DNA of 26,336 nucleotides from positions 1 through 26,336 of the IMG/VR virus record IMGVR_UViG_3300023173_000094; one strand, given 5' to 3'. Made by a program: the position numbers and the translations under genes. The stretch is from a virus (Duplodnaviria; Caudoviricetes). Within the stretch, counting starts at the first letter, position 1. Each line of letters starts with the position of its first letter. The notes beneath the pieces were generated by a model, which was not told the origin of the DNA, made no database searches, and saw only the letters and a list, made by a program, of their open reading frames with translations. Positions 289 to 17,255 of this stretch are shown piece by piece.

Positions 289-445
289 AATGTATTCAGC
301 AAAAGAAATGCTTGAAGGAGAAATTCAAGACCTGATTGCAGAATTTATGATCAAAACTCATGTCAGATGCGGAGGTGTTACAATCAAGACAACAGAGTTC
401 AATGGCAAAGAAACTATTGTATCAGTTAATGTTTTAATAAAATGA
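275..445 (+). CDS. Hypothetical protein (56 aa, not in ORF track)
   Basis: MTINEMYSAKEMLEGEIQDLIAEF...VNVLIK*; its stop overlaps the next start (ATGA at 442-445). Confidence 0.6.
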   Translation: MTINEMYSAKEMLEGEIQDLIAEFMIKTHVRCGGVTIKTTEFNGKETIVSVNVLIK

Positions 446-969
446 GTAAAGTATTTGATTTATCAATGTTGAGGATCAATCCTCAAAACCCATTTCCATT
501 TTCTGGATCAGATGCAGATTGGAATGATTTTAAAAAGAAGTTAGACAGAGACCCTGAGTTTTTAGAAGCAAATAAAATAGCATATGACTCATCCAGAGAC
601 AACCTTCTTATAGCGGGAAACAAAAGGGTTCAAGCATTGCGTGAACTTGGATGGAAGTCAATACCATCAAAATATGTAATCGATTGCAAAGATTGGAGTG
701 AAGAGAAGCGAGAACGATATATCTACGCATCAAATTGGAATATAGGACAATGGTCAATTGAATATGCAGATGATGAAATGGCAGAGGAGTTTGGTATTGA
801 ATTTGATCAAGAAAATGACCGAAACGAGGAATACCAAGAACCTGAAGAACAAGAATATGATATAAATGCTAATTGGTTTTTAAATATTCGATTCACAAAT
901 GAAGATGAATGTCAAAAACATTATGAAGAATTTATTGAAAAGGGATTAGATGTTAAAATAGTACAATAA
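442..969 (+). CDS. ParB/Srx-like N-terminal domain protein
   Basis: NPQNP motif, LLIAGNKRVQALRELGW and N..IGQW motifs typical of phage ParB-N proteins; acidic linker; TAATG coupling to the next gene. Confidence 0.8.
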   Translation: MSKVFDLSMLRINPQNPFPFSGSDADWNDFKKKLDRDPEFLEANKIAYDSSRDNLLIAGNKRVQALRELGWKSIPSKYVIDCKDWSEEKRERYIYASNWNIGQWSIEYADDEMAEEFGIEFDQENDRNEEYQEPEEQEYDINANWFLNIRFTNEDECQKHYEEFIEKGLDVKIVQ

Positions 970-1673
970 TGAAATTGAACCATGAATATTTAGTTGAGTT
1001 ACAATCCGAAATACCAAATTCCTTTAGGACTAAAATGGCTTGTGATTCTTTGGATATTAATATTGAAGAAAAATCAAAACATAAGCTTTTGATTGAAGGA
1101 ATTAAAGTACCAAATGATTGGTCAATAGGACTTATTTTAGGTGCAAGTGGGTCTGGGAAAACAACACTTGCCAAAGAAATTTTTGGTGATGATTGTTTTG
1201 ATGATACAATCAATGAATCTAAACCTATAATTGATCAACTTCCTAAAGACTTAAAATACAATGATTGTGCAAATTTGTTGAGTGGAATAGGGTTAACTTC
1301 TGTTCCTTGTTGGGTTCGTCCAGTTTACACTTTATCGAATGGGCAAAAAGCAAGAGCAAAAGCGGTTTTGCAAATGACAAAAAACAAAGATATAAGTGTA
1401 ATTGATGAGTGGACTTCTGTTGTTGATAGGCAAGTGGCAAAAGTTATGTCTCATTGCGTTCAGAAATTTGCTCGAAGAAATAAAAAGAAAATTGTTTTGT
1501 GTAGTTGTCATTATGATATTTTGGAATGGTTAAACCCAGATTGGGTTATTGATTGCAATGATCAAAAATTCTATAACCGAGATTTAAAAAAAAAAGAGAA
1601 GAACAACTTGAGTTTACTATCAAAGAAATCAGTAAAGACTCATGGAGGTATTTTAGCAAGTATCATTATTTAA
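969..1673 (+). CDS. ABC-type ATPase (N-terminal part of a probable ATPase-GNAT fusion)
   Basis: Walker A GASGSGKT, signature LSNGQ, Walker B/D-loop VIDEWTSVVD, H-loop CSCH; no transmembrane partner nearby. Confidence 0.88.
   Translation: MKLNHEYLVELQSEIPNSFRTKMACDSLDINIEEKSKHKLLIEGIKVPNDWSIGLILGASGSGKTTLAKEIFGDDCFDDTINESKPIIDQLPKDLKYNDCANLLSGIGLTSVPCWVRPVYTLSNGQKARAKAVLQMTKNKDISVIDEWTSVVDRQVAKVMSHCVQKFARRNKKKIVLCSCHYDILEWLNPDWVIDCNDQKFYNRDLKKKEKNNLSLLSKKSVKTHGGILASIII
1583..1596 (+). other. Candidate -1 frameshift / transcriptional slippage site
   Basis: T_TTA_AAA in the ATPase frame (X XXY YYZ) overlapping an A10 run (1586-1595). The -1 frame opens after TAA at 1574-1576 and encodes the GNAT N-terminus with no ATG. 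Confidence 0.65.
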
Positions 1674-2107
1674 GCAAAAGATTGCCCGGAGGAAAATTGT
1701 ACTTATTTGGTTTATTCGATGGAGAAAAACAAATAGGGTTTCAATGTTTTGCAAACTATGTTCCAATAAAGAAAAACATGATTCCAATATATCATAGCAA
1801 TAGAACTGTAATCCATCCAGATTATCAGGGATTTGGATTGGGGTTAAAGTTGATAAATGCCACAAGTAAGTTCATGAAAGAAAATTATAAATACAGAATC
1901 ATGGCTAAATTTTCATCATTACCGATATATAAATCAATGAGTAAAAATTCTGATTGGAAATTATTGAAGGTATTGAGAACTAACGGTAAAATGAAAACTG
2001 GAGGCAATTATGGAAGGAATCGTGGGCATAAAGCAGGTAAATTTGGAGTAGGAGGATTTAGGGAAGGAGGAGTAAGAACATTTTCTTTTGAATATTTTGG
2101 GAAATAA
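1589..2107 (+). CDS. GNAT acetyltransferase, Mom-like (reached by -1 shift from the ATPase)
   Basis: The -1 frame reads REEQLEFTIKEISKDSWRYFSKYHYLSKRLPGG... then the acetyl-CoA-binding motif RTVIHPDYQGFGLG. The ORF-track TTG start at 1682 would cut off the WxxFxxYHYL motif. Confidence 0.78.
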   Translation, partial: KKREEQLEFTIKEISKDSWRYFSKYHYLSKRLPGGKLYLFGLFDGEKQIGFQCFANYVPIKKNMIPIYHSNRTVIHPDYQGFGLGLKLINATSKFMKENYKYRIMAKFSSLPIYKSMSKNSDWKLLKVLRTNGKMKTGGNYGRNRGHKAGKFGVGGFREGGVRTFSFEYFGK

Positions 2108-3352: not shown

Positions 3353-3639
3353 TTCATGTAATTTATGTAAAAAAAAAATGGTTTGATTTGATCGCTTCTG
3401 GGGAAAAGAAAGAAGAATATCGAGAATTGAAACCATATTGGCAAAAGCGATTGTTAAAATTTAAGAAAAGAGATTTATTGAAATTCAAAAATGGATATAA
3501 TAAAAATTCAGATTCATTAATTGTAGAATTTAAAGGATATACTATAAAAAAACCAAACTCATTATGGACTGAAATTGATAATATTTATAATGATTGCTAT
3601 GCAATACATTTGGGGGAAATAATATCATGGGATAAATAA
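3349..3639 (+). CDS. ASCH domain protein
   Basis: KKKWFDLIASGEKKEEYRE.KPYW..RL (GxKxxExR) and F.NGY motifs. Confidence 0.85.
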   Translation: MIHVIYVKKKWFDLIASGEKKEEYRELKPYWQKRLLKFKKRDLLKFKNGYNKNSDSLIVEFKGYTIKKPNSLWTEIDNIYNDCYAIHLGEIISWDK

Positions 3640-3674: not shown

Positions 3675-4082
3675 ATGGGTGGAGGACGTGGAAATATAAC
3701 ACCAGAGGATAATACGAATGGGTTTCAAAAGAATCCTCAAAACATAAACAGAAAAGGGCGCAAACCATCATTAAAGAAGCAACTTGAAAAGGTAGCTCTA
3801 TCAGATGGGTGGTTGACGTTTGACAAGAAAGATGTCCAGATACTTGACAATAGCATTAAGGTCAAAGTCCCTAAAGAAGAAGCAATGGCATTGAAGATGT
3901 TTCAGATTGCAATGGGCAAAAACCCGAATGCTGCTATGAATGCCATCAAGTTATATTTGGAGACATTTGATGGCAAGGCGAATCAGAACATAAGGATTGA
4001 AGATAAAAGACCAAGCAAGGAAGACATTCTTGCAGAGATCAAAGAAATCGACAAACTGCTCAAAGAAAAGGATGGCAAATGA
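3675..4082 (+). CDS. Putative terminase small subunit
   Basis: FQKNPQNINRKGRKP N-terminal motif; helical body; overlaps the terminase large subunit start. Confidence 0.72.
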   Translation: MGGGRGNITPEDNTNGFQKNPQNINRKGRKPSLKKQLEKVALSDGWLTFDKKDVQILDNSIKVKVPKEEAMALKMFQIAMGKNPNAAMNAIKLYLETFDGKANQNIRIEDKRPSKEDILAEIKEIDKLLKEKDGK

Positions 4083-5553
4083 TCTGCTTGACAGAAAGCT
4101 GCAATTACTGAAATGGCTTCGCATTGATGAGTGCAGAGATGACTATTTCACATTTTTAAAGTATTTATTTCAGAATAAAGATGTAGTGTGGAACTGGCAT
4201 CATAAATATGCGTGTGGTGTCTTGCAAGAGTTTGTTGAAGGTAAGCACAGCAATCTGATGATCTTCATGCCTCCACAACATCAGAAGTCAACGATGTTGG
4301 TTGAATTTCTTGTTCCATATGCGCTTGGCATTAATCCAAATGAGCAGATCATTCTTACTATGTACAACCAAACCAAAGCAGCTGAATACAACAGAAAGAT
4401 TCAGCGCATTATGACAGATGAAAAGTATTCAGATATATTTCCAGAGACAAGATTGAACGATAGGAATGTGGTTACTGATGCGAGAGGTCAGTATGTGCGA
4501 AATTCAGAGAAGTTTGAAGTGGTAAACAATCAAGGCTTTCTGTATTCTGTTGGTGTAAGTGGTGGTATTGCAGGAACTCCAGCAAAGATGGCACTCATGG
4601 ATGATGTCATCAAGAACTATGAGGAGGCTTATTCACCTACATACAGAAATCGTGTTTACAATTGGTACACCGATGAACTTGAGTCGAGATTGCACAACGA
4701 TTCACGAGTGGCATTCACGATCACACGAAGACACATGGATGATCTTGCAGGGCGTTTGCTTGACAGAGATGGCACAGTTGAAGAGGGAGGCAAGTGGAAA
4801 GTTGTCACCATACCAGCAATAAAAGAAACGAACGAAAATGCTGATGATCCTCGCAAGATAGGAGAAGCATTGTTTCCGCATCTTCACTCGCTTGAAAGAC
4901 TTGAAGAAATAAGAGATAAGAATCCAAGAACATTTGCTTCATTATATCAGCAACGACCTGCACCGACAGAAGGCGCAATCATCAAGCGTGAGTGGTTTAA
5001 AAGCTATGATAAAAGGTCTGTAAACATCAATAATTTGCGATCTAAGACACGAATTTACATTGATGGTGCATATACATCAAACAAAGCGAATGATCCATCA
5101 GCAATCGTTGTATATGCGATGATAAATCGAAAGGTACATATATTGCGATCGTTTCAAGAGTGGCTTGAAGCACCAGAACTTTTGAAGCGTATACAAGAGA
5201 TCATTGCAACGTATGGCAATGAGAAATATACAAGAGTGATGTTTGAACCAAAGGCATCTGGAAAGACACTCAAGCAGATTCTTGCTTCTTCAGGTATTCT
5301 TGCCAAAGAAGATAAAGCACCCACAGAATCAAAGGTGACACGAGTTGAAGTCATCACACCATTCCTTGAACGTGGCGAGGTGTTATTGCCGAGCAATGAA
5401 GCTGATCAAACATGGGTCAACGCATTTATTGACGAGTGCATCACGTTTCCGAGTGGCAGAGATGATCAAGTCGATTGCTTGAGTGCTATCTGTCGCATTG
5501 AACTTGCAACTGCTCCAGCAATACAATGGAATCAATCAACTATGCGAATATGA
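4072..5553 (+). CDS. terL: Terminase large subunit
   Basis: WHH adenine-binding region, MPPQHQKST Walker A variant, MDD Walker B, TRRH..DL.G coupling motif, LYQQRP, nuclease acidic residues (IYID, FEPKASG, DDQVD). Start ATG 4072. Confidence 0.93.
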   Translation: MANDLLDRKLQLLKWLRIDECRDDYFTFLKYLFQNKDVVWNWHHKYACGVLQEFVEGKHSNLMIFMPPQHQKSTMLVEFLVPYALGINPNEQIILTMYNQTKAAEYNRKIQRIMTDEKYSDIFPETRLNDRNVVTDARGQYVRNSEKFEVVNNQGFLYSVGVSGGIAGTPAKMALMDDVIKNYEEAYSPTYRNRVYNWYTDELESRLHNDSRVAFTITRRHMDDLAGRLLDRDGTVEEGGKWKVVTIPAIKETNENADDPRKIGEALFPHLHSLERLEEIRDKNPRTFASLYQQRPAPTEGAIIKREWFKSYDKRSVNINNLRSKTRIYIDGAYTSNKANDPSAIVVYAMINRKVHILRSFQEWLEAPELLKRIQEIIATYGNEKYTRVMFEPKASGKTLKQILASSGILAKEDKAPTESKVTRVEVITPFLERGEVLLPSNEADQTWVNAFIDECITFPSGRDDQVDCLSAICRIELATAPAIQWNQSTMRI

Positions 5554-5738: not shown

Positions 5739-5749
5739 TGCGATCTATT

Positions 5750-5795
5750 TTTTTTTATAAAAAAAGTATGAATTCTTTTTTTTTATAAAAAAAAA
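5750..5795. repeat. Two tandem A/T-only perfect palindromes (T7-AT-A7 and T9-AT-A9)
   Basis: 5750-5765 and 5776-5795; centres 28 bp apart with GAATTC between them. Confidence 0.85.
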
Positions 5796-11736: not shown

Positions 11737-13527
11737 ATGCGAACAAAGTTTTCAGAATTATCAACGATACCATTCTACACCTCAAGACAAGAGCAGCATC
11801 TCTACACATTTGATAGCAATGTTCCTGTATTACTGTTTCCTGACTTTGGTTCGATTAAGTTTCAGCTTATATTCAAAAATGATCTTCAGACGTATCAAGG
11901 TGCTACAATAAAAAGCGACACAGCAACTTACGTTCCTGACTCTGTGTCATACAATAGCATCACACAAGATGTTGACAATGATGGCAATGATGAGTTCTTT
12001 CTTCAATTCGATGGCTTTACTTACGCAGCACCACCAACAGAAGATAAATATTGGATTGAACTCTTGATTAATGGAGTGACGTATTATTCAGAAGTATTTT
12101 TCATTTGTTCTGCCAAGTACAAAATTGAGTGGTATGATGACTGCTCATCAAAAGACTTTGGAAATTTTGATTCTGGATGGAAGAACATCTTGTATCTAAA
12201 TGACTTTTTTCCGACAGTCACAAACATTGAAGAACAGATTGAAGAACGTGCTGATGGTTATGGCAACAACAAGAAAATATACCAAAGATCAGAAATCGTT
12301 TACACAGCGCAAGTAAAAGGCTCAAACTTTCTGCGCCACGCATTTAATAACATCAAATATTATGACAATATAGAGTTGACACACATCGCCTCTTCACAAA
12401 CGTGGACAATTTATGATCTAAAAGGTGAAAGTGGCGGTGGAAATGGTGCTTATGCGCTTGATATAAGCTATAAAACGGAAGATTATGAGAAACTTGAATG
12501 TAACATCAGCGCATATGAGAACGCTCCATATACCGACCCTGATACGCCTTCTCCGGGTGATCTGACTTGCGGTGCTTTTGCTGTCACAATAGTTCAAACT
12601 GGCTTTCAGTTATCATATACGTTGTTAAATGATCCAGATGCAACAGTAGTTGAAGACATAACATGGACAAGAAATGGTCGATTTTTGGGCAAGGGATCAA
12701 CAGTAACGCTTGGTGATTTTGGAAATTATGGAGTTCGCATACAAAAGAAGAATTGCATTGTAACAGATTATTACAATTATCAAGACGTTTGCATCGCTAT
12801 GCAGACAAGCGTTAGCGTAAACAATGACATCATAAATGCCTCTACATCGAATGCACCATCTTCTGTCTCTTATGAAGTTTACAATCCATCTGGTTCTCTT
12901 GTCAGCAGTTCATTGCCATATACTGCTGTTGCTGATGGTGTGCATACAGTCAAAGTTGCTTCTGGTGATTGTGAAAAGATATACAATGTACCTGTGAACA
13001 TTACAGGATCAGTTGATTGCTCGTTTACTTTTGAACTGTCGAAAGATGCTTCAAATACTTTGAGTGTTGTAAACAATACAGCAGTCACTTATTCTGTCGA
13101 ATGGTTCAAGGTTATCAATGGGAATGAAGAGGTTTCTGTCGGCACAGGTGACACTCATGACATTGATGGTGAAGGCTTGTTCATTGCAAGAATGACATCT
13201 TCTGGCTGTTCATTAGATGTCCTTTATATTTACCTTGAGACTGCTGTCAATCAAGGTTTCACATTTCAACTGTATGAAAGGTCATTGAATTACTCAGGAT
13301 CAAATTATGATGTTGCGAACTTTACGCTTCCGCATCCAAGCATATTCACAGAAGATGAGATTGATGATCGTTTGAGGGTTGTTGTTAATGGAGTCACATA
13401 CGCATACAAAGGAACTACAACTGCGATCAATGAATACACTATTGACTTTGCAAATAATAGGATAACTCCTCATGTCGCATTTGCGACTGATGACATTCAG
13501 CTTTATAGAACATTTATCAAGAAGTAA
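11737..13527 (+). CDS. Putative virion structural protein with three Cys-bracketed Ig-like repeats (596 aa)
   Basis: Repeats end GNYGVRIQKKNC, GVHTVKVASGDC and GLFIARMTSSGC; T/S/V-rich beta composition. Confidence 0.6.
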   Translation: MRTKFSELSTIPFYTSRQEQHLYTFDSNVPVLLFPDFGSIKFQLIFKNDLQTYQGATIKSDTATYVPDSVSYNSITQDVDNDGNDEFFLQFDGFTYAAPPTEDKYWIELLINGVTYYSEVFFICSAKYKIEWYDDCSSKDFGNFDSGWKNILYLNDFFPTVTNIEEQIEERADGYGNNKKIYQRSEIVYTAQVKGSNFLRHAFNNIKYYDNIELTHIASSQTWTIYDLKGESGGGNGAYALDISYKTEDYEKLECNISAYENAPYTDPDTPSPGDLTCGAFAVTIVQTGFQLSYTLLNDPDATVVEDITWTRNGRFLGKGSTVTLGDFGNYGVRIQKKNCIVTDYYNYQDVCIAMQTSVSVNNDIINASTSNAPSSVSYEVYNPSGSLVSSSLPYTAVADGVHTVKVASGDCEKIYNVPVNITGSVDCSFTFELSKDASNTLSVVNNTAVTYSVEWFKVINGNEEVSVGTGDTHDIDGEGLFIARMTSSGCSLDVLYIYLETAVNQGFTFQLYERSLNYSGSNYDVANFTLPHPSIFTEDEIDDRLRVVVNGVTYAYKGTTTAINEYTIDFANNRITPHVAFATDDIQLYRTFIKK

Positions 13528-16500
13528 TGAGAATAATACTTTCAATATTATTTTGTTTTGCGTATTTATTAGGATTTTCTCAAGTCAAGAATAAACAGAT
13601 GGAGACAAGTGCTTCTCCAACTATGTTTTTGATGACCAAAAATGATGCTACACTTGGCAATGTCAGACAGTTTGTGACAGCTTCAGAGGCTGCTGATACA
13701 TTGAATGCAAATTTTAGCTTTAATAATATATACAACATTGATGGCACTCTGACAGGAACAAGATCATTGTCATTGGCAGGTTATGATCTTACGTTTCTGC
13801 AAAGTGGAATTGGTGACGTTGTCTTTTATGGCAATAATTCAGTATGGACAAACTATACAAACTCACATCAAGCAAAGATTGGATCGTATAATAGTGGAAC
13901 TTTTGTAGGTAGTGAATCGGCTTCACCTTTTGAGTTCATAATTGGAAATACTGCTCAAGCGATTATTGAAAGTGATGGTGATGCTTATTATTATAATGAT
14001 CTTGGGGTTGGTATTTCTCCTGTCTATGCTTTGGATGTAGTTGGAGAGTTCAGGTTGAATAATGCAACAGAGGGAATTGATAGAGTTCTCAGATCGGATG
14101 CAAATGGTCTTGCTTCATGGGTTGATCTTGGAACTCTTGGAGGTGGTACAGATGATCAAACATTGCAAGAGGTATTGACAAGCGGCAATGATGCTGGAGG
14201 CTTAGATGCTATGAATTTCGCAGAGGTAGAAGCCGATGAATTTATTGGCGATTTAAGGGGAGCAGTTCTGTTTAAAGCACAGGCAGGAGAAAATTTAGCA
14301 AAAGGACAAGTAGTTTATGTCTCAGGCATTTCAGGGAATACGACAATAGTCTCTAAGGCAGATGCTGATGATGCTGCTAAGATGCCGGGCTTTGGGGTAG
14401 TGGCAGCCTCAGCCAATTCAGGCAATCCTGTTGATATTTATACCTTTGGCACGTTATCAAATTTAAATACATTAGCATTTTCTTTAGGTGATATATTATA
14501 CATTTCAACGACTGCTGGTCAATTAACTGCAATTCCACCAACTGGGGAATCAGCGTTAATACAAAATATAGCAAAAGTAACGAGGGTAGATAATTCTGCG
14601 GGTTCGATAAAAATATCAGGCGCAGGAAGGACTAATGCTACCCCTAACTTAAATACAGGTAGACTATTCGTGGGTAATGCCTCGAATCAAGCGGTAGCAG
14701 ATGGGACAATTTACGTTGATATAGCGAATAGTAGGGTGGGTATTGGAACGTCAACTCCCGATGAGAAATTGGAAATCGAGGGTGGAGATATACATATAGA
14801 CCAATCAACCAATGCTTATTTAAGAATAGACAGAAGTGCAACAAACAGGAGGGCAGAATTGCAATTTGAAACAGCAGGTAGTGATAATTGGGTAATAGGT
14901 GCGGTTGATTCTGATGACCATAGCGGAGCAGGTGATGGCAGCGAGTTATTTATAGGTACGTCAAGCGGTGGCGGTGCAAAATTGTGGATAGAAAACAACG
15001 GAAACGTAGGGATTGGAACGTCATCACCAGACGCTACACTACGAATAGATAACTCCTCAGGAAGGGCGCTGAAGGTTACGGGTGGTTTTGGTACTGCAAA
15101 CCCAATAGCTGAATTTGTAAGGGATGATGTGGTTAATGATAAGGTCTATATTTCGGCAAATGGAAGTGAACCGCAAATATCTTTTTTACAAGCTGAAGGT
15201 GGTAGCGCAAATGATTGGTCAATAGGTACAGGGTATGAAGGTTCTTTTGAGATAGCAGACAACACATACTTAGGAACTAATACAAGGTTTGTAATTAATA
15301 ACACAGGAGACGTAGAGATAGCGACAGTAAACACAGACAACACAACAGATGATGTATTGGTGCATAGTTCAGACGGAACGGTATCAAAGAGAACATTAAC
15401 CTCAATAGGTGATGAAATTGACCTCAATTTAGGCGATGATAATTTGACATTAACTGGGTTTAGGACTGTCAATCTTTCAAATAATGACTTGCAATTCCAA
15501 ATGAATGGTACAGGTGTCGGACATGGTGGTTTTTGGTATCTTGATGCGAGTGCAAATTCTTTGAATAATTATTCAGCAGACAACGGTGCGGGTGGTAATT
15601 ATGGATTTTTCTCAATATCTAATCCAAGTTCGGGATTTGACCTTGTTGAACGATTTAATTTTTTTGGTGGTGATGGCACAAGTAATTATAACATTAGAAT
15701 CTTTGACCAAACATCTACAACTGGTGCGAAAGAGGTGCGTATATATAATGGAGCATTAAGATTGTATGACTCAGGTTCTGCCTCTGACATTTATTTAAAC
15801 CCTGATGGCAGTAGTTATATTGTCAATAATTTAGCCATTGGAAGCACCTCAACGCCGAATACTTTTTATGTTGATTCTCCAAGCAATATACCAATGCGAG
15901 TTGATGGAGGCAACAATTCCTTTATCACTTTTATAACTAACACTGAGGTTACGCCAAATCATGCAAGAATAGGCTTTGCTGCTGATGATATGGAAGTTTG
16001 GACAAATGGAGTCGAGAGATTTCATATAAGCGGAACAGGAAGCGTAGGCATAAATACATCATCACCCGCCAAGCAGCTTGAAATAGAAAACACAGGTGCT
16101 GCTGCTACAATGCTGATTCAGACAACAGATGACCAAAATGCCTATATTGAATACCAAAACAATTCGGGAGGCGGTGGACTGATTTATAGAACTGGGGTGA
16201 CAACTTTAGAGCATTGGGACATATCTTCTGATAGTCAGGTCATGCTGCGTTTGGATAGGGCAAATAATAGAGTTCAAGTGATAGACCAAGAATTGAGAGT
16301 ATCTTCTACTGGATCGGAGCATGTCTTTTTCAATACAGACAACTGGGGGATAAGAGACCAATTCGCAAATTTAAAATTGTACTTTGATGCCAGTTCGAGC
16401 AATCCACTTGGAACAACAATGACTACTTACAACAACGACCTATATTGGGTATTTGATAGTGCTACTGATGATTATCGTCTCCGCACAGGTTCATATGATA

Positions 16501-17255
16501 ATCTTAAATATGAAAAGACCACAGGAACTGTAGGAGAGTATTTTGAGTTAGGTTTTGATGAATTAAAGGTATATAGCGAGACTGACTTTTTCACTTTAAC
16601 AAAAGTAGACCACACAGGAGGATTTCCAGAGACTGCAAGTTTTGAATTTACAGATGGTGGTTACATACGAACAAGCACAGGAATAGAACATAAAGCCGAT
16701 TCAGATACGGAGATGTTTTTTTCTAATGATATTATTCGATTCTATGCTGGTGGCTATGATTTACTACATCTTGAAGAACGAGCGGGACTGGTAAATAGGG
16801 TTGTAATAAATGAAAATAGTACAGCTTGTGAATTTAGAGTAGAAAGCGACACAGATGCAAATGCAATATTTATGGATGGCACAAGCGGTGATATTGGTTT
16901 TGGTACGAATACGCCAAGTGCAGAACTTGATGTGGTAGGAGATACAGAGTTGAATGGTGATTTACTCATAACAGATGGCACAAGGATATTTAAGATAACA
17001 CAGAATGTAAATGGTACTCAAATAGGAGATGTTTCGGGTTCTGGTGGTAATGATTTAAACCTACAATCTAATTCAGTTACAAGAATAAATATTGAAGCAG
17101 AGGGAAGAATAAATATTAATGATGTATTGAATTTAAATCCATTGTCTACTGCTCCTAATTCTGGGACAGAGCAGGATGGAGACATTTATTTACACGACAC
17201 AGGCTCAGCATATGAATTAAGAGTTTGGAATGGTTCAAGTTGGCAGACATTATAA
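13527..17255 (+). CDS. Tail-fibre-like / adhesin protein with N-terminal signal peptide (1242 aa)
   Basis: Six G(N/S/D)VGIGTxxP-type fibre repeats; AGENLAKGQVVYVSG domain; N-terminus MRIILSILFCFAYLLGFS|Q. Confidence 0.75.
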   Translation: MRIILSILFCFAYLLGFSQVKNKQMETSASPTMFLMTKNDATLGNVRQFVTASEAADTLNANFSFNNIYNIDGTLTGTRSLSLAGYDLTFLQSGIGDVVFYGNNSVWTNYTNSHQAKIGSYNSGTFVGSESASPFEFIIGNTAQAIIESDGDAYYYNDLGVGISPVYALDVVGEFRLNNATEGIDRVLRSDANGLASWVDLGTLGGGTDDQTLQEVLTSGNDAGGLDAMNFAEVEADEFIGDLRGAVLFKAQAGENLAKGQVVYVSGISGNTTIVSKADADDAAKMPGFGVVAASANSGNPVDIYTFGTLSNLNTLAFSLGDILYISTTAGQLTAIPPTGESALIQNIAKVTRVDNSAGSIKISGAGRTNATPNLNTGRLFVGNASNQAVADGTIYVDIANSRVGIGTSTPDEKLEIEGGDIHIDQSTNAYLRIDRSATNRRAELQFETAGSDNWVIGAVDSDDHSGAGDGSELFIGTSSGGGAKLWIENNGNVGIGTSSPDATLRIDNSSGRALKVTGGFGTANPIAEFVRDDVVNDKVYISANGSEPQISFLQAEGGSANDWSIGTGYEGSFEIADNTYLGTNTRFVINNTGDVEIATVNTDNTTDDVLVHSSDGTVSKRTLTSIGDEIDLNLGDDNLTLTGFRTVNLSNNDLQFQMNGTGVGHGGFWYLDASANSLNNYSADNGAGGNYGFFSISNPSSGFDLVERFNFFGGDGTSNYNIRIFDQTSTTGAKEVRIYNGALRLYDSGSASDIYLNPDGSSYIVNNLAIGSTSTPNTFYVDSPSNIPMRVDGGNNSFITFITNTEVTPNHARIGFAADDMEVWTNGVERFHISGTGSVGINTSSPAKQLEIENTGAAATMLIQTTDDQNAYIEYQNNSGGGGLIYRTGVTTLEHWDISSDSQVMLRLDRANNRVQVIDQELRVSSTGSEHVFFNTDNWGIRDQFANLKLYFDASSSNPLGTTMTTYNNDLYWVFDSATDDYRLRTGSYDNLKYEKTTGTVGEYFELGFDELKVYSETDFFTLTKVDHTGGFPETASFEFTDGGYIRTSTGIEHKADSDTEMFFSNDIIRFYAGGYDLLHLEERAGLVNRVVINENSTACEFRVESDTDANAIFMDGTSGDIGFGTNTPSAELDVVGDTELNGDLLITDGTRIFKITQNVNGTQIGDVSGSGGNDLNLQSNSVTRINIEAEGRININDVLNLNPLSTAPNSGTEQDGDIYLHDTGSAYELRVWNGSSWQTL

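Follow-up and report, generated by a model that had tools for sequence, protein, structure and literature searches.

A conserved A10 junction between a phage ABC ATPase and a GNAT acyltransferase is a likely recoding site within a probable family-wide two-product system

The frame break between an ABC-type ATPase gene and a GNAT acyltransferase domain in this phage DNA is likely a real and conserved recoding site. Comparative evidence places it within a two-product system that appears to span the family. The window, by which we mean the whole 26,336-nt stretch analysed, is a linear phage record of ~26 kb, ~69% complete, and its sequence is present in salt-marsh runs; its host probably belongs to the Bacteroidota. 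A run of ten A's (A10) marks the conserved junction, at which polymerase slippage probably yields mostly a 234-aa ATPase with an I-I-I tail and, as a minority product, a 379-aa fusion. For the family as a whole, there is good reason to think that recoding is obligatory and that each split or intact gene gives an I-x-I-tailed ATPase plus an ATPase-acyltransferase. At least four signals, swapped independently of one another, would bring this about, and an SD-stimulated +1 shift at CUU and a sense codon would be the commonest. The features on which the argument draws are as follows.

442..969, + strand: ParB-like gene whose small C-terminal domain is conserved; first of the module, overlapping the ATPase start (PHROG ParB-like, E 8e-5 to 1e-4)
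969..1673, + strand: ABC-type ATPase ORF of 234 aa with a disordered tail at its end, the putative default product (PF00005 above cut-off; phrog_11143 positions 3-199)
1577..2107, + strand: acyltransferase domain of the GNAT type, read in the −1 frame (reaches cut-off for PF13673 and PF00583; phrog_11143 positions 197-321; alignment to relatives)
1583..1589, + strand: T_TTA_AAA heptamer, in the right phase, not conserved
1586..1595, + strand: A10, the candidate slip site, where an extra A in RNA (or a −1 ribosome shift) would join the frames
1596..1673, + strand: dual-coded stretch; the 0 frame gives the tail, and the −1 frame gives the first GNAT strand, a helix and Y-H-Y-L
1609..1642, + strand: weak hairpin, not significant and not conserved
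4072..5553, + strand: terminase large subunit, packaging context (PF03237, PF17289, phrog_38)

The layout of the junction largely agrees with a preliminary description of this DNA, which had proposed a 234-aa ABC ATPase followed by a GNAT domain in the −1 frame. Both are present. The ATPase ORF (969-1673) contains A10 at 1586-1595 and carries what we take to be the Walker A (GASGSGKTT), signature (LSNGQ), Walker B (VIDE) and H-loop (CHYD) motifs. The −1 frame opens at 1577, as had been stated: its last stop lies at 1574-1576, it is open from 1577 to 2104 and it stops at 2105-2107, encoding EQLEFTIKEISKDSWRYFSKYHYLS and HPDYQGFGLG on the way. The claim that no ATG precedes the YHYL motif also held: ATG, GTG and TTG are all absent from the −1 frame ahead of HYL, and the first TTG is at 1682. 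A one-base shift in A10 gives 209 + 170 = 379 aa, matching the fusion size of ~379 aa put forward earlier. The dual-coded stretch closes with I-I-I-TAA in the 0 frame (1662-1673) and with Y-H-Y-L in the −1 frame (1661-1672). Other elements of the description have to be revised. The 0-frame tail had been read as filler, but throughout the family selection acts on the I-I-I-stop with which it ends. The hairpin at 1609-1642, offered as a signal, is at chance level (−5.0 kcal/mol, z −1.06; z −0.25 for the 60 nt downstream), and the T_TTA_AAA slippery site, although present in phase, is shared only with one other locus (L004) among the A-run split junctions compared. We rejected both as conserved signals. 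The term 'Mom-like' for the acetyltransferase describes a resemblance only, as the Pfam Mom profile scores 17.8 bits against a cut-off of 27.1.

The two halves belong to a recognizable module. The single 357-position profile phrog_11143 is matched by both once the frames are joined (E 2e-61 and 2e-13), with the ABC domain followed by the GNAT domain, a ParB-like gene upstream and packaging genes near. Profile matches give the order ParB-like, ABC ATPase, GNAT, upstream of the terminase. A ParB-related ORF lies directly upstream of the ATPase in 141 of 175 loci, and the phage records LE3, SL25, P335, Pmp13 and NHagos have a similar neighbourhood of module and packaging genes. A structure model gives ATPase residues 206-234 a pLDDT below 50, and prediction of a complex between the short ATPase and the ParB-like protein scored 0.00. 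Among the matches listed, NCBIfam gave no family above cut-off, and Foldseek and PDB sequence searches with a fused relative returned ABC domains only and no GNAT; a promoter and terminator scan was at chance level. In the Porphyromonas, phiE255 and Komp_PAO1_1 phages (L191, L196 and L201), a small ORF stands upstream instead of the ParB gene, and the GNAT domain has a formyltransferase after it; the window has no adjacent formyltransferase.

To place the junction in its family, at least 380 homologous loci were collected, including 20 GenBank phage records; 13 loci were dropped before counting for want of an anchor or because of truncation, and 175 distinct junctions were kept. The preliminary description had allowed that the homologues might all be in-frame fusions. 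They are not: 139 junctions are fused, 34 are split by −1 at the corresponding linker and 2 are split by +1, and 6 of the 20 GenBank phage records are split by −1 in the linker; Lactococcus P335 is of the split type, and Gordonia NHagos and Rhodococcus Jace are of the fused type. The split −1 junctions comprise 16 A-run loci (15 A10, 1 A9), 4 T-run loci and 14 short-T or other loci, and the fused ones comprise 38 T-run loci (37 T10), 2 A10 loci, 88 CTT/GTT cassettes and 11 others. The A-run −1 loci are spread over the three codon phases (8/4/3), and none has seven or eight A's. Among all 19 A-run loci, no A11 locus is fused, and the two fused A-run loci are both A10. A lone A10 is not rare in the window (P of at least one, 0.47 in block shuffles); what goes beyond chance is its place rather than its occurrence, because long A/T runs are concentrated in the linker: the linkers (11,025 bases) contain 62 runs of at least nine, and the remaining 181,598 bases of the 175 genes contain 14.

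Among protein records, the best 119 homologues comprise 71 fused, 46 short and 2 other proteins; all 46 short ones end in III or ITI, with FF at the junction in 34 and KK in 12, and short and fused proteins can be 92% alike. The T9-type class rests mostly on these protein records, and a locus scan with a T9-type short protein led to one locus. A quick tree built from 129 ATPase domains requires 6 changes of the A-run −1 label, 5 of them forced by strong branches; the tree is unrooted, and we therefore claim no order of events. One of its A-run −1 rows (L228) is placed in the short-T clade and carries both signals. T-run lengths differ inside one clade (T9, T10, T11 and T12). Three loci with off-length tracts beside fused sisters, L170 (A12, +1 split), L181 (T11, +1 split) and L083 (T12, −1 split), are either recent slips or assembly errors.

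Most fused genes carry either T10 or a cassette that resembles those of prfB and Ty1, namely an SD-like sequence, three bases, CUU and a sense codon. In 88 fused relatives, GGAGG or AGGGG stands 3 bases before CUU (76) or GUU (12), and the codon in the A site is CGG (27), CAA (20), TGG (12), AGG (12), TGT (7), CAG (5) or another (5); a UGA stop occupies this A site in 0 of the 88. Because the CTT class was originally picked by codon, it was re-tested from amino-acid motifs alone. In cassettes selected in this way, Leu is CTT in 70 of 75 (13.5 expected) and Arg-Arg is CGG/AGG-AGG in 35 of 35 (1.0 expected). Pairing of the cassette with the anti-SD reaches −7.7 kcal/mol, versus −2.2 in synonymous shuffles. 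A short-T clade from Firmicutes, which includes Lactococcus P335 and Streptococcus phages, instead has U_UUU and a stem-loop, with z below −2 in 9 of 12 short-T loci (mean z −2.8) versus 0 of 12 A-run loci. The T10 class comprises four lineages at 70% identity, in which TTT already makes up 82% of Phe codons, and 11 fused genes have no recognisable signal. In four linkers (L084, L141, L153 and L172), an SD-like sequence is followed by ATG or GTG at the CTT position with the +1 frame still open, which could represent a variant cassette or an internal start.

The principal new finding concerns fused genes that look intact. The default ending of split genes lies in what corresponds to the +1 frame of the fused ones. 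Over the 28 codons before the Leu of HYL, a stretch chosen after data inspection, this +1 frame contains 0 stops, whereas synonymous codon use predicts 133 (n = 139 fused genes). The deficit persists after dereplication (0 versus 40.7 in 53 representatives at 70% identity; 0 versus 18.1 in 23 at 60%) and within subsets (0 versus 68 in the CTT class, 0 versus 51 in the T-run class and 0 versus 9.6 in 14 GenBank phage records). As controls, the −1 frame holds 373 stops versus 344 expected, and seven control windows and the flanking bins are near expectation. The open stretch then ends at a common point: 136 of 139 fused genes have a +1-frame stop at the HYL Leu, versus 58 expected, and 3 have none. 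Ser following this Leu is encoded by AGY in 84 cases and by TCN in 3. The last Tyr codon is TAT in 138 of 139 (88 expected), even where the genes prefer TAC elsewhere, and the third-last codon is NNT in 137 of 139 (83.5 expected), with the middle codon free (81 versus 82). Judged by these codon counts, synonymous choices in the GNAT frame hold the last and third-last residues of the tail at Ile, a protein-type I-x-I end, and tails end in III or ITI in 161 of 175 junctions. We think it unlikely that a DNA-level, promoter-like motif underlies the TAT bias, because the frame upstream stays open and each of the three stop codons occurs. Every identified shift site falls inside the open +1 stretch. 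A +1 frame open up to the HYL Leu in all 139 fused genes, taken with the shift signals, suggests that two products are likely family-wide, an ATPase with a tail and an ATPase-GNAT protein made through four interchangeable signals.

For the window, we propose that host RNA polymerase slips at A10 and adds an A in part of the transcripts. Unshifted transcripts would give the majority product, a 234-aa ABC ATPase with a disordered I-I-I tail, and transcripts with the added A would give the minority 379-aa ATPase-GNAT fusion, whose predicted activity is the acylation of phage DNA. Since ABC domains function in pairs, the short and long proteins might form an ABC dimer with fewer acyltransferase heads, as do gamma and tau in dnaX. 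The hydrophobic end of the disordered tail may bind a partner or a tail-specific protease. Relatives would arrive at the same pair by other routes, including T9/T10 slippage in either direction, a −1 shift at U_UUU with a stem-loop, and a +1 shift at SD-NNN-CUU and a sense codon from an intact gene. We infer that both proteins are made at once, by transcriptional slippage, and that they act jointly; the short protein presumably has a function, since its frame and its end are conserved whichever form is the default.

That the products of 234 and ~379 aa put forward in the preliminary description arise through a conserved programmed shift is strongly supported by this comparison. Bacterial polymerase slippage is efficient from 9 A or T (PMC5009743, PMC3711429), and a conserved run of at least nine A or T does lie at the frame junction. 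Its length is conserved at A10 in any phase and without downstream structure, which favours polymerase slippage over a −1 ribosomal shift. We regard as doubtful, though worth entertaining, that the same two products come from a −1 ribosomal slip on the window's T_TTA_AAA or A_AAA_AAA. Each heptamer stands in phase for such a slip, an in-frame A_AAA_AAA being contained in every A10. In IS elements, only one other −1 heptamer rivals A_AAA_AAA in frequency (PMC4066793), ribosomes are reported to slide on A runs (PMC4363877), and the family's own short-T and CUU clades look ribosomal. However, T_TTA is kept in just two A-run junctions among those compared, the window has no significant hairpin (z −0.25 to −1.06) and weak upstream SD pairing (−3.0), and the 16 A-run −1 loci include no A7 or A8 while showing a length of ten in all three phases.

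Transcriptional slippage at A10 must also be weighed against readings in which the DNA itself differs. The preliminary description had named A-tract length switching beside two-product recoding; of the two, recoding is favoured and switching is less likely. Phase variation, in which replication slippage within the phage population would alternate the acyltransferase between an on state (A11) and an off state (A10), is improbable, being weakened by the lack of any fused A11 locus among the 19 A-run loci, where both fused members are A10. Neither the selection that acts on the tail frame and on its I-x-I end nor the cassettes without long runs (88 CUU, 14 short-T) would be accounted for by an off state. 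In favour of phase variation, tract lengths differ among relatives (A9, A10 and A12; T9 to T12), short and fused proteins that are 92% alike would also be expected from DNA-level switching, phase variation is known for DNA-modification genes (PMC3711429) and rare variants are hidden in contigs. It is more improbable still that the gene is broken, that the break is an assembly error or that two separate genes are present, with the GNAT part restarting at TTG 1682. Homopolymers are error-prone, but A10 appears in four assemblies, the break is shared by 34 distinct loci, and, apart from the break, the GNAT frame is intact and shares 45-78% identity with most of the relatives listed. The GNAT part is often called as a 130-150-aa ORF in databases, and GenBank annotates two genes in P335, Vinitor-27, Javan141 and MismyG. 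A restart at TTG 1682 would nevertheless lose core parts of the domain, because the overlap encodes its first strand and helix, as judged from a structure model (pLDDT 88) of one fused relative, and an H and a Y that are invariant in 68 fused proteins.

The length of the run is not an assembly slip. Contigs of two DNA runs, possibly the source samples, read A10 rather than A11 at depths of 33 and 74, and both other IMG/VR copies also read A10; these four DNA assemblies show A10 only, with the qualification that contigs drop rare variants. Six RNA runs were examined, and three of the four RNA contigs covering the run have A10 and one has A11. The A11 contig has a depth of 4.3 and just 29 letters on one side, and single contigs with an added A also occur at control runs in ordinary genes, an A7 (2209) and an A6 (3102), for which reason we do not count it as support. 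A second A10 in the window, at 3369-3378, lies in frame in a 96-aa gene (phrog_625) and would serve well as a control site; the other two frames run into stops shortly beyond it, and A10 is the reading of one RNA contig there.

The ABC-GNAT system itself is predicted in print, as a fusion that would acylate a DNA base (PMC7824862), and the published system has the same two domains, a ParB-like neighbour and proximity to the terminase. Our locus set includes its published example (QAX98348.1 and phage pT24). The available text of PMC7824862 presents one fused protein, with recoding or a short product unmentioned. No paper on recoding in the ABC-GNAT family was found in a search of open-access literature, and two supplements of PMC3711429 had no match for the family; we consider the recoding signals in fused ABC-GNAT genes to be new here. 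One parallel is dnaX, a P-loop ATPase with or without a C-terminal extension and with an A10 run: Thermus uses transcriptional slippage at A9, a two-ORF A10 dnaX exists and E. coli uses −1 programmed ribosomal frameshifting, such that mechanisms and default direction are interchangeable across species (PMC3711429, PMC5009743). However, dnaX is a host replisome gene, its gamma product stops at once, and a +1 cassette is unmentioned in the portions of these sources at hand (PMC3711429, PMC5009743). The phage family, unlike gamma, has a 25-30-residue tail with a selected I-x-I end. The tssM gene of Citrobacter rodentium and Yersinia pseudotuberculosis is also similar in its poly-A slippage, its need for both short and long products and its use of either default, but it concerns a secretion-system membrane protein, two species and a single mechanism (PMC4256274).

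The spacing of SD 3 nt before CUU in the fused relatives, as distinct from the window's own site, recalls prfB (SD, CUU, UGA) and the CUU_AGG_C of Ty1 (PMC3711429, PMC2377451, PMC5009743), and 12 of the 88 cassettes have AGG next, as in Ty1 (PMC2377451, PMC5009743). In contrast to prfB, the A site would hold a slow sense codon rather than UGA, and the shift would shorten the product. The chelatase gene chlD likewise gives an ATPase and a longer subunit from one gene, with split and fused forms coexisting (PMC9227772, PMC3711429); it encodes a cellular AAA+ protein, however, and the accessible part of PMC9227772 leaves a hidden short product in fused chlD unmentioned. Mom of phage Mu (PF25680) shares the GNAT fold and an N-terminal HY motif, in which H58 and Y59 are putative active-site residues, and has an HTH-like insertion, R111, S124 and D149, and a Gly-tRNA donor; unlike the window fusion, it has no ATPase (PMC13219725).

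If recoding is indeed obligatory in the family, the +1 shift at CUU and a sense codon would tie the subunit ratio of an enzyme to host tRNA supply, and, tail chaperones and Ig-like extensions apart, no phage recoding would be more widespread than that of this family. The family likely adds a widespread case outside tail assembly, and one invisible to annotation, in which ordinary-looking intact ORFs carry a hidden second product. In a single linker, polymerase slippage and both −1 and +1 ribosomal signals would form a natural series leading to one output, so that the reasons why genes exchange recoding mechanisms could be tested directly; the family would also supply natural bacterial SD-stimulated +1 sites at sense codons. 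Reconstitution of the predicted DNA-acylation system would probably need two proteins rather than one, and codon optimisation or mis-annotation would deprive a construct of one of the two.

Several minor observations concern gene annotation. In Pseudoalteromonas phage SL25 (L192), the stretch at ~870-2900 is unannotated in GenBank but holds a fused ABC-GNAT gene that is intact and has a prfB-like cassette. In Tenacibaculum phage pT24 (L188), an in-frame TGA lies inside the GNAT domain, 21 codons past the HYL Leu, and GenBank gives two ORFs; this could be a broken gene, readthrough or a sequencing error. Elsewhere in the window, an intergenic cluster of T9, T9 and A9 follows the terminase region at 5748-5795, with short inverted repeats that are possibly terminators, and the tail region at 13527-17255 encodes a repetitive fibre-like protein of 1242 aa.
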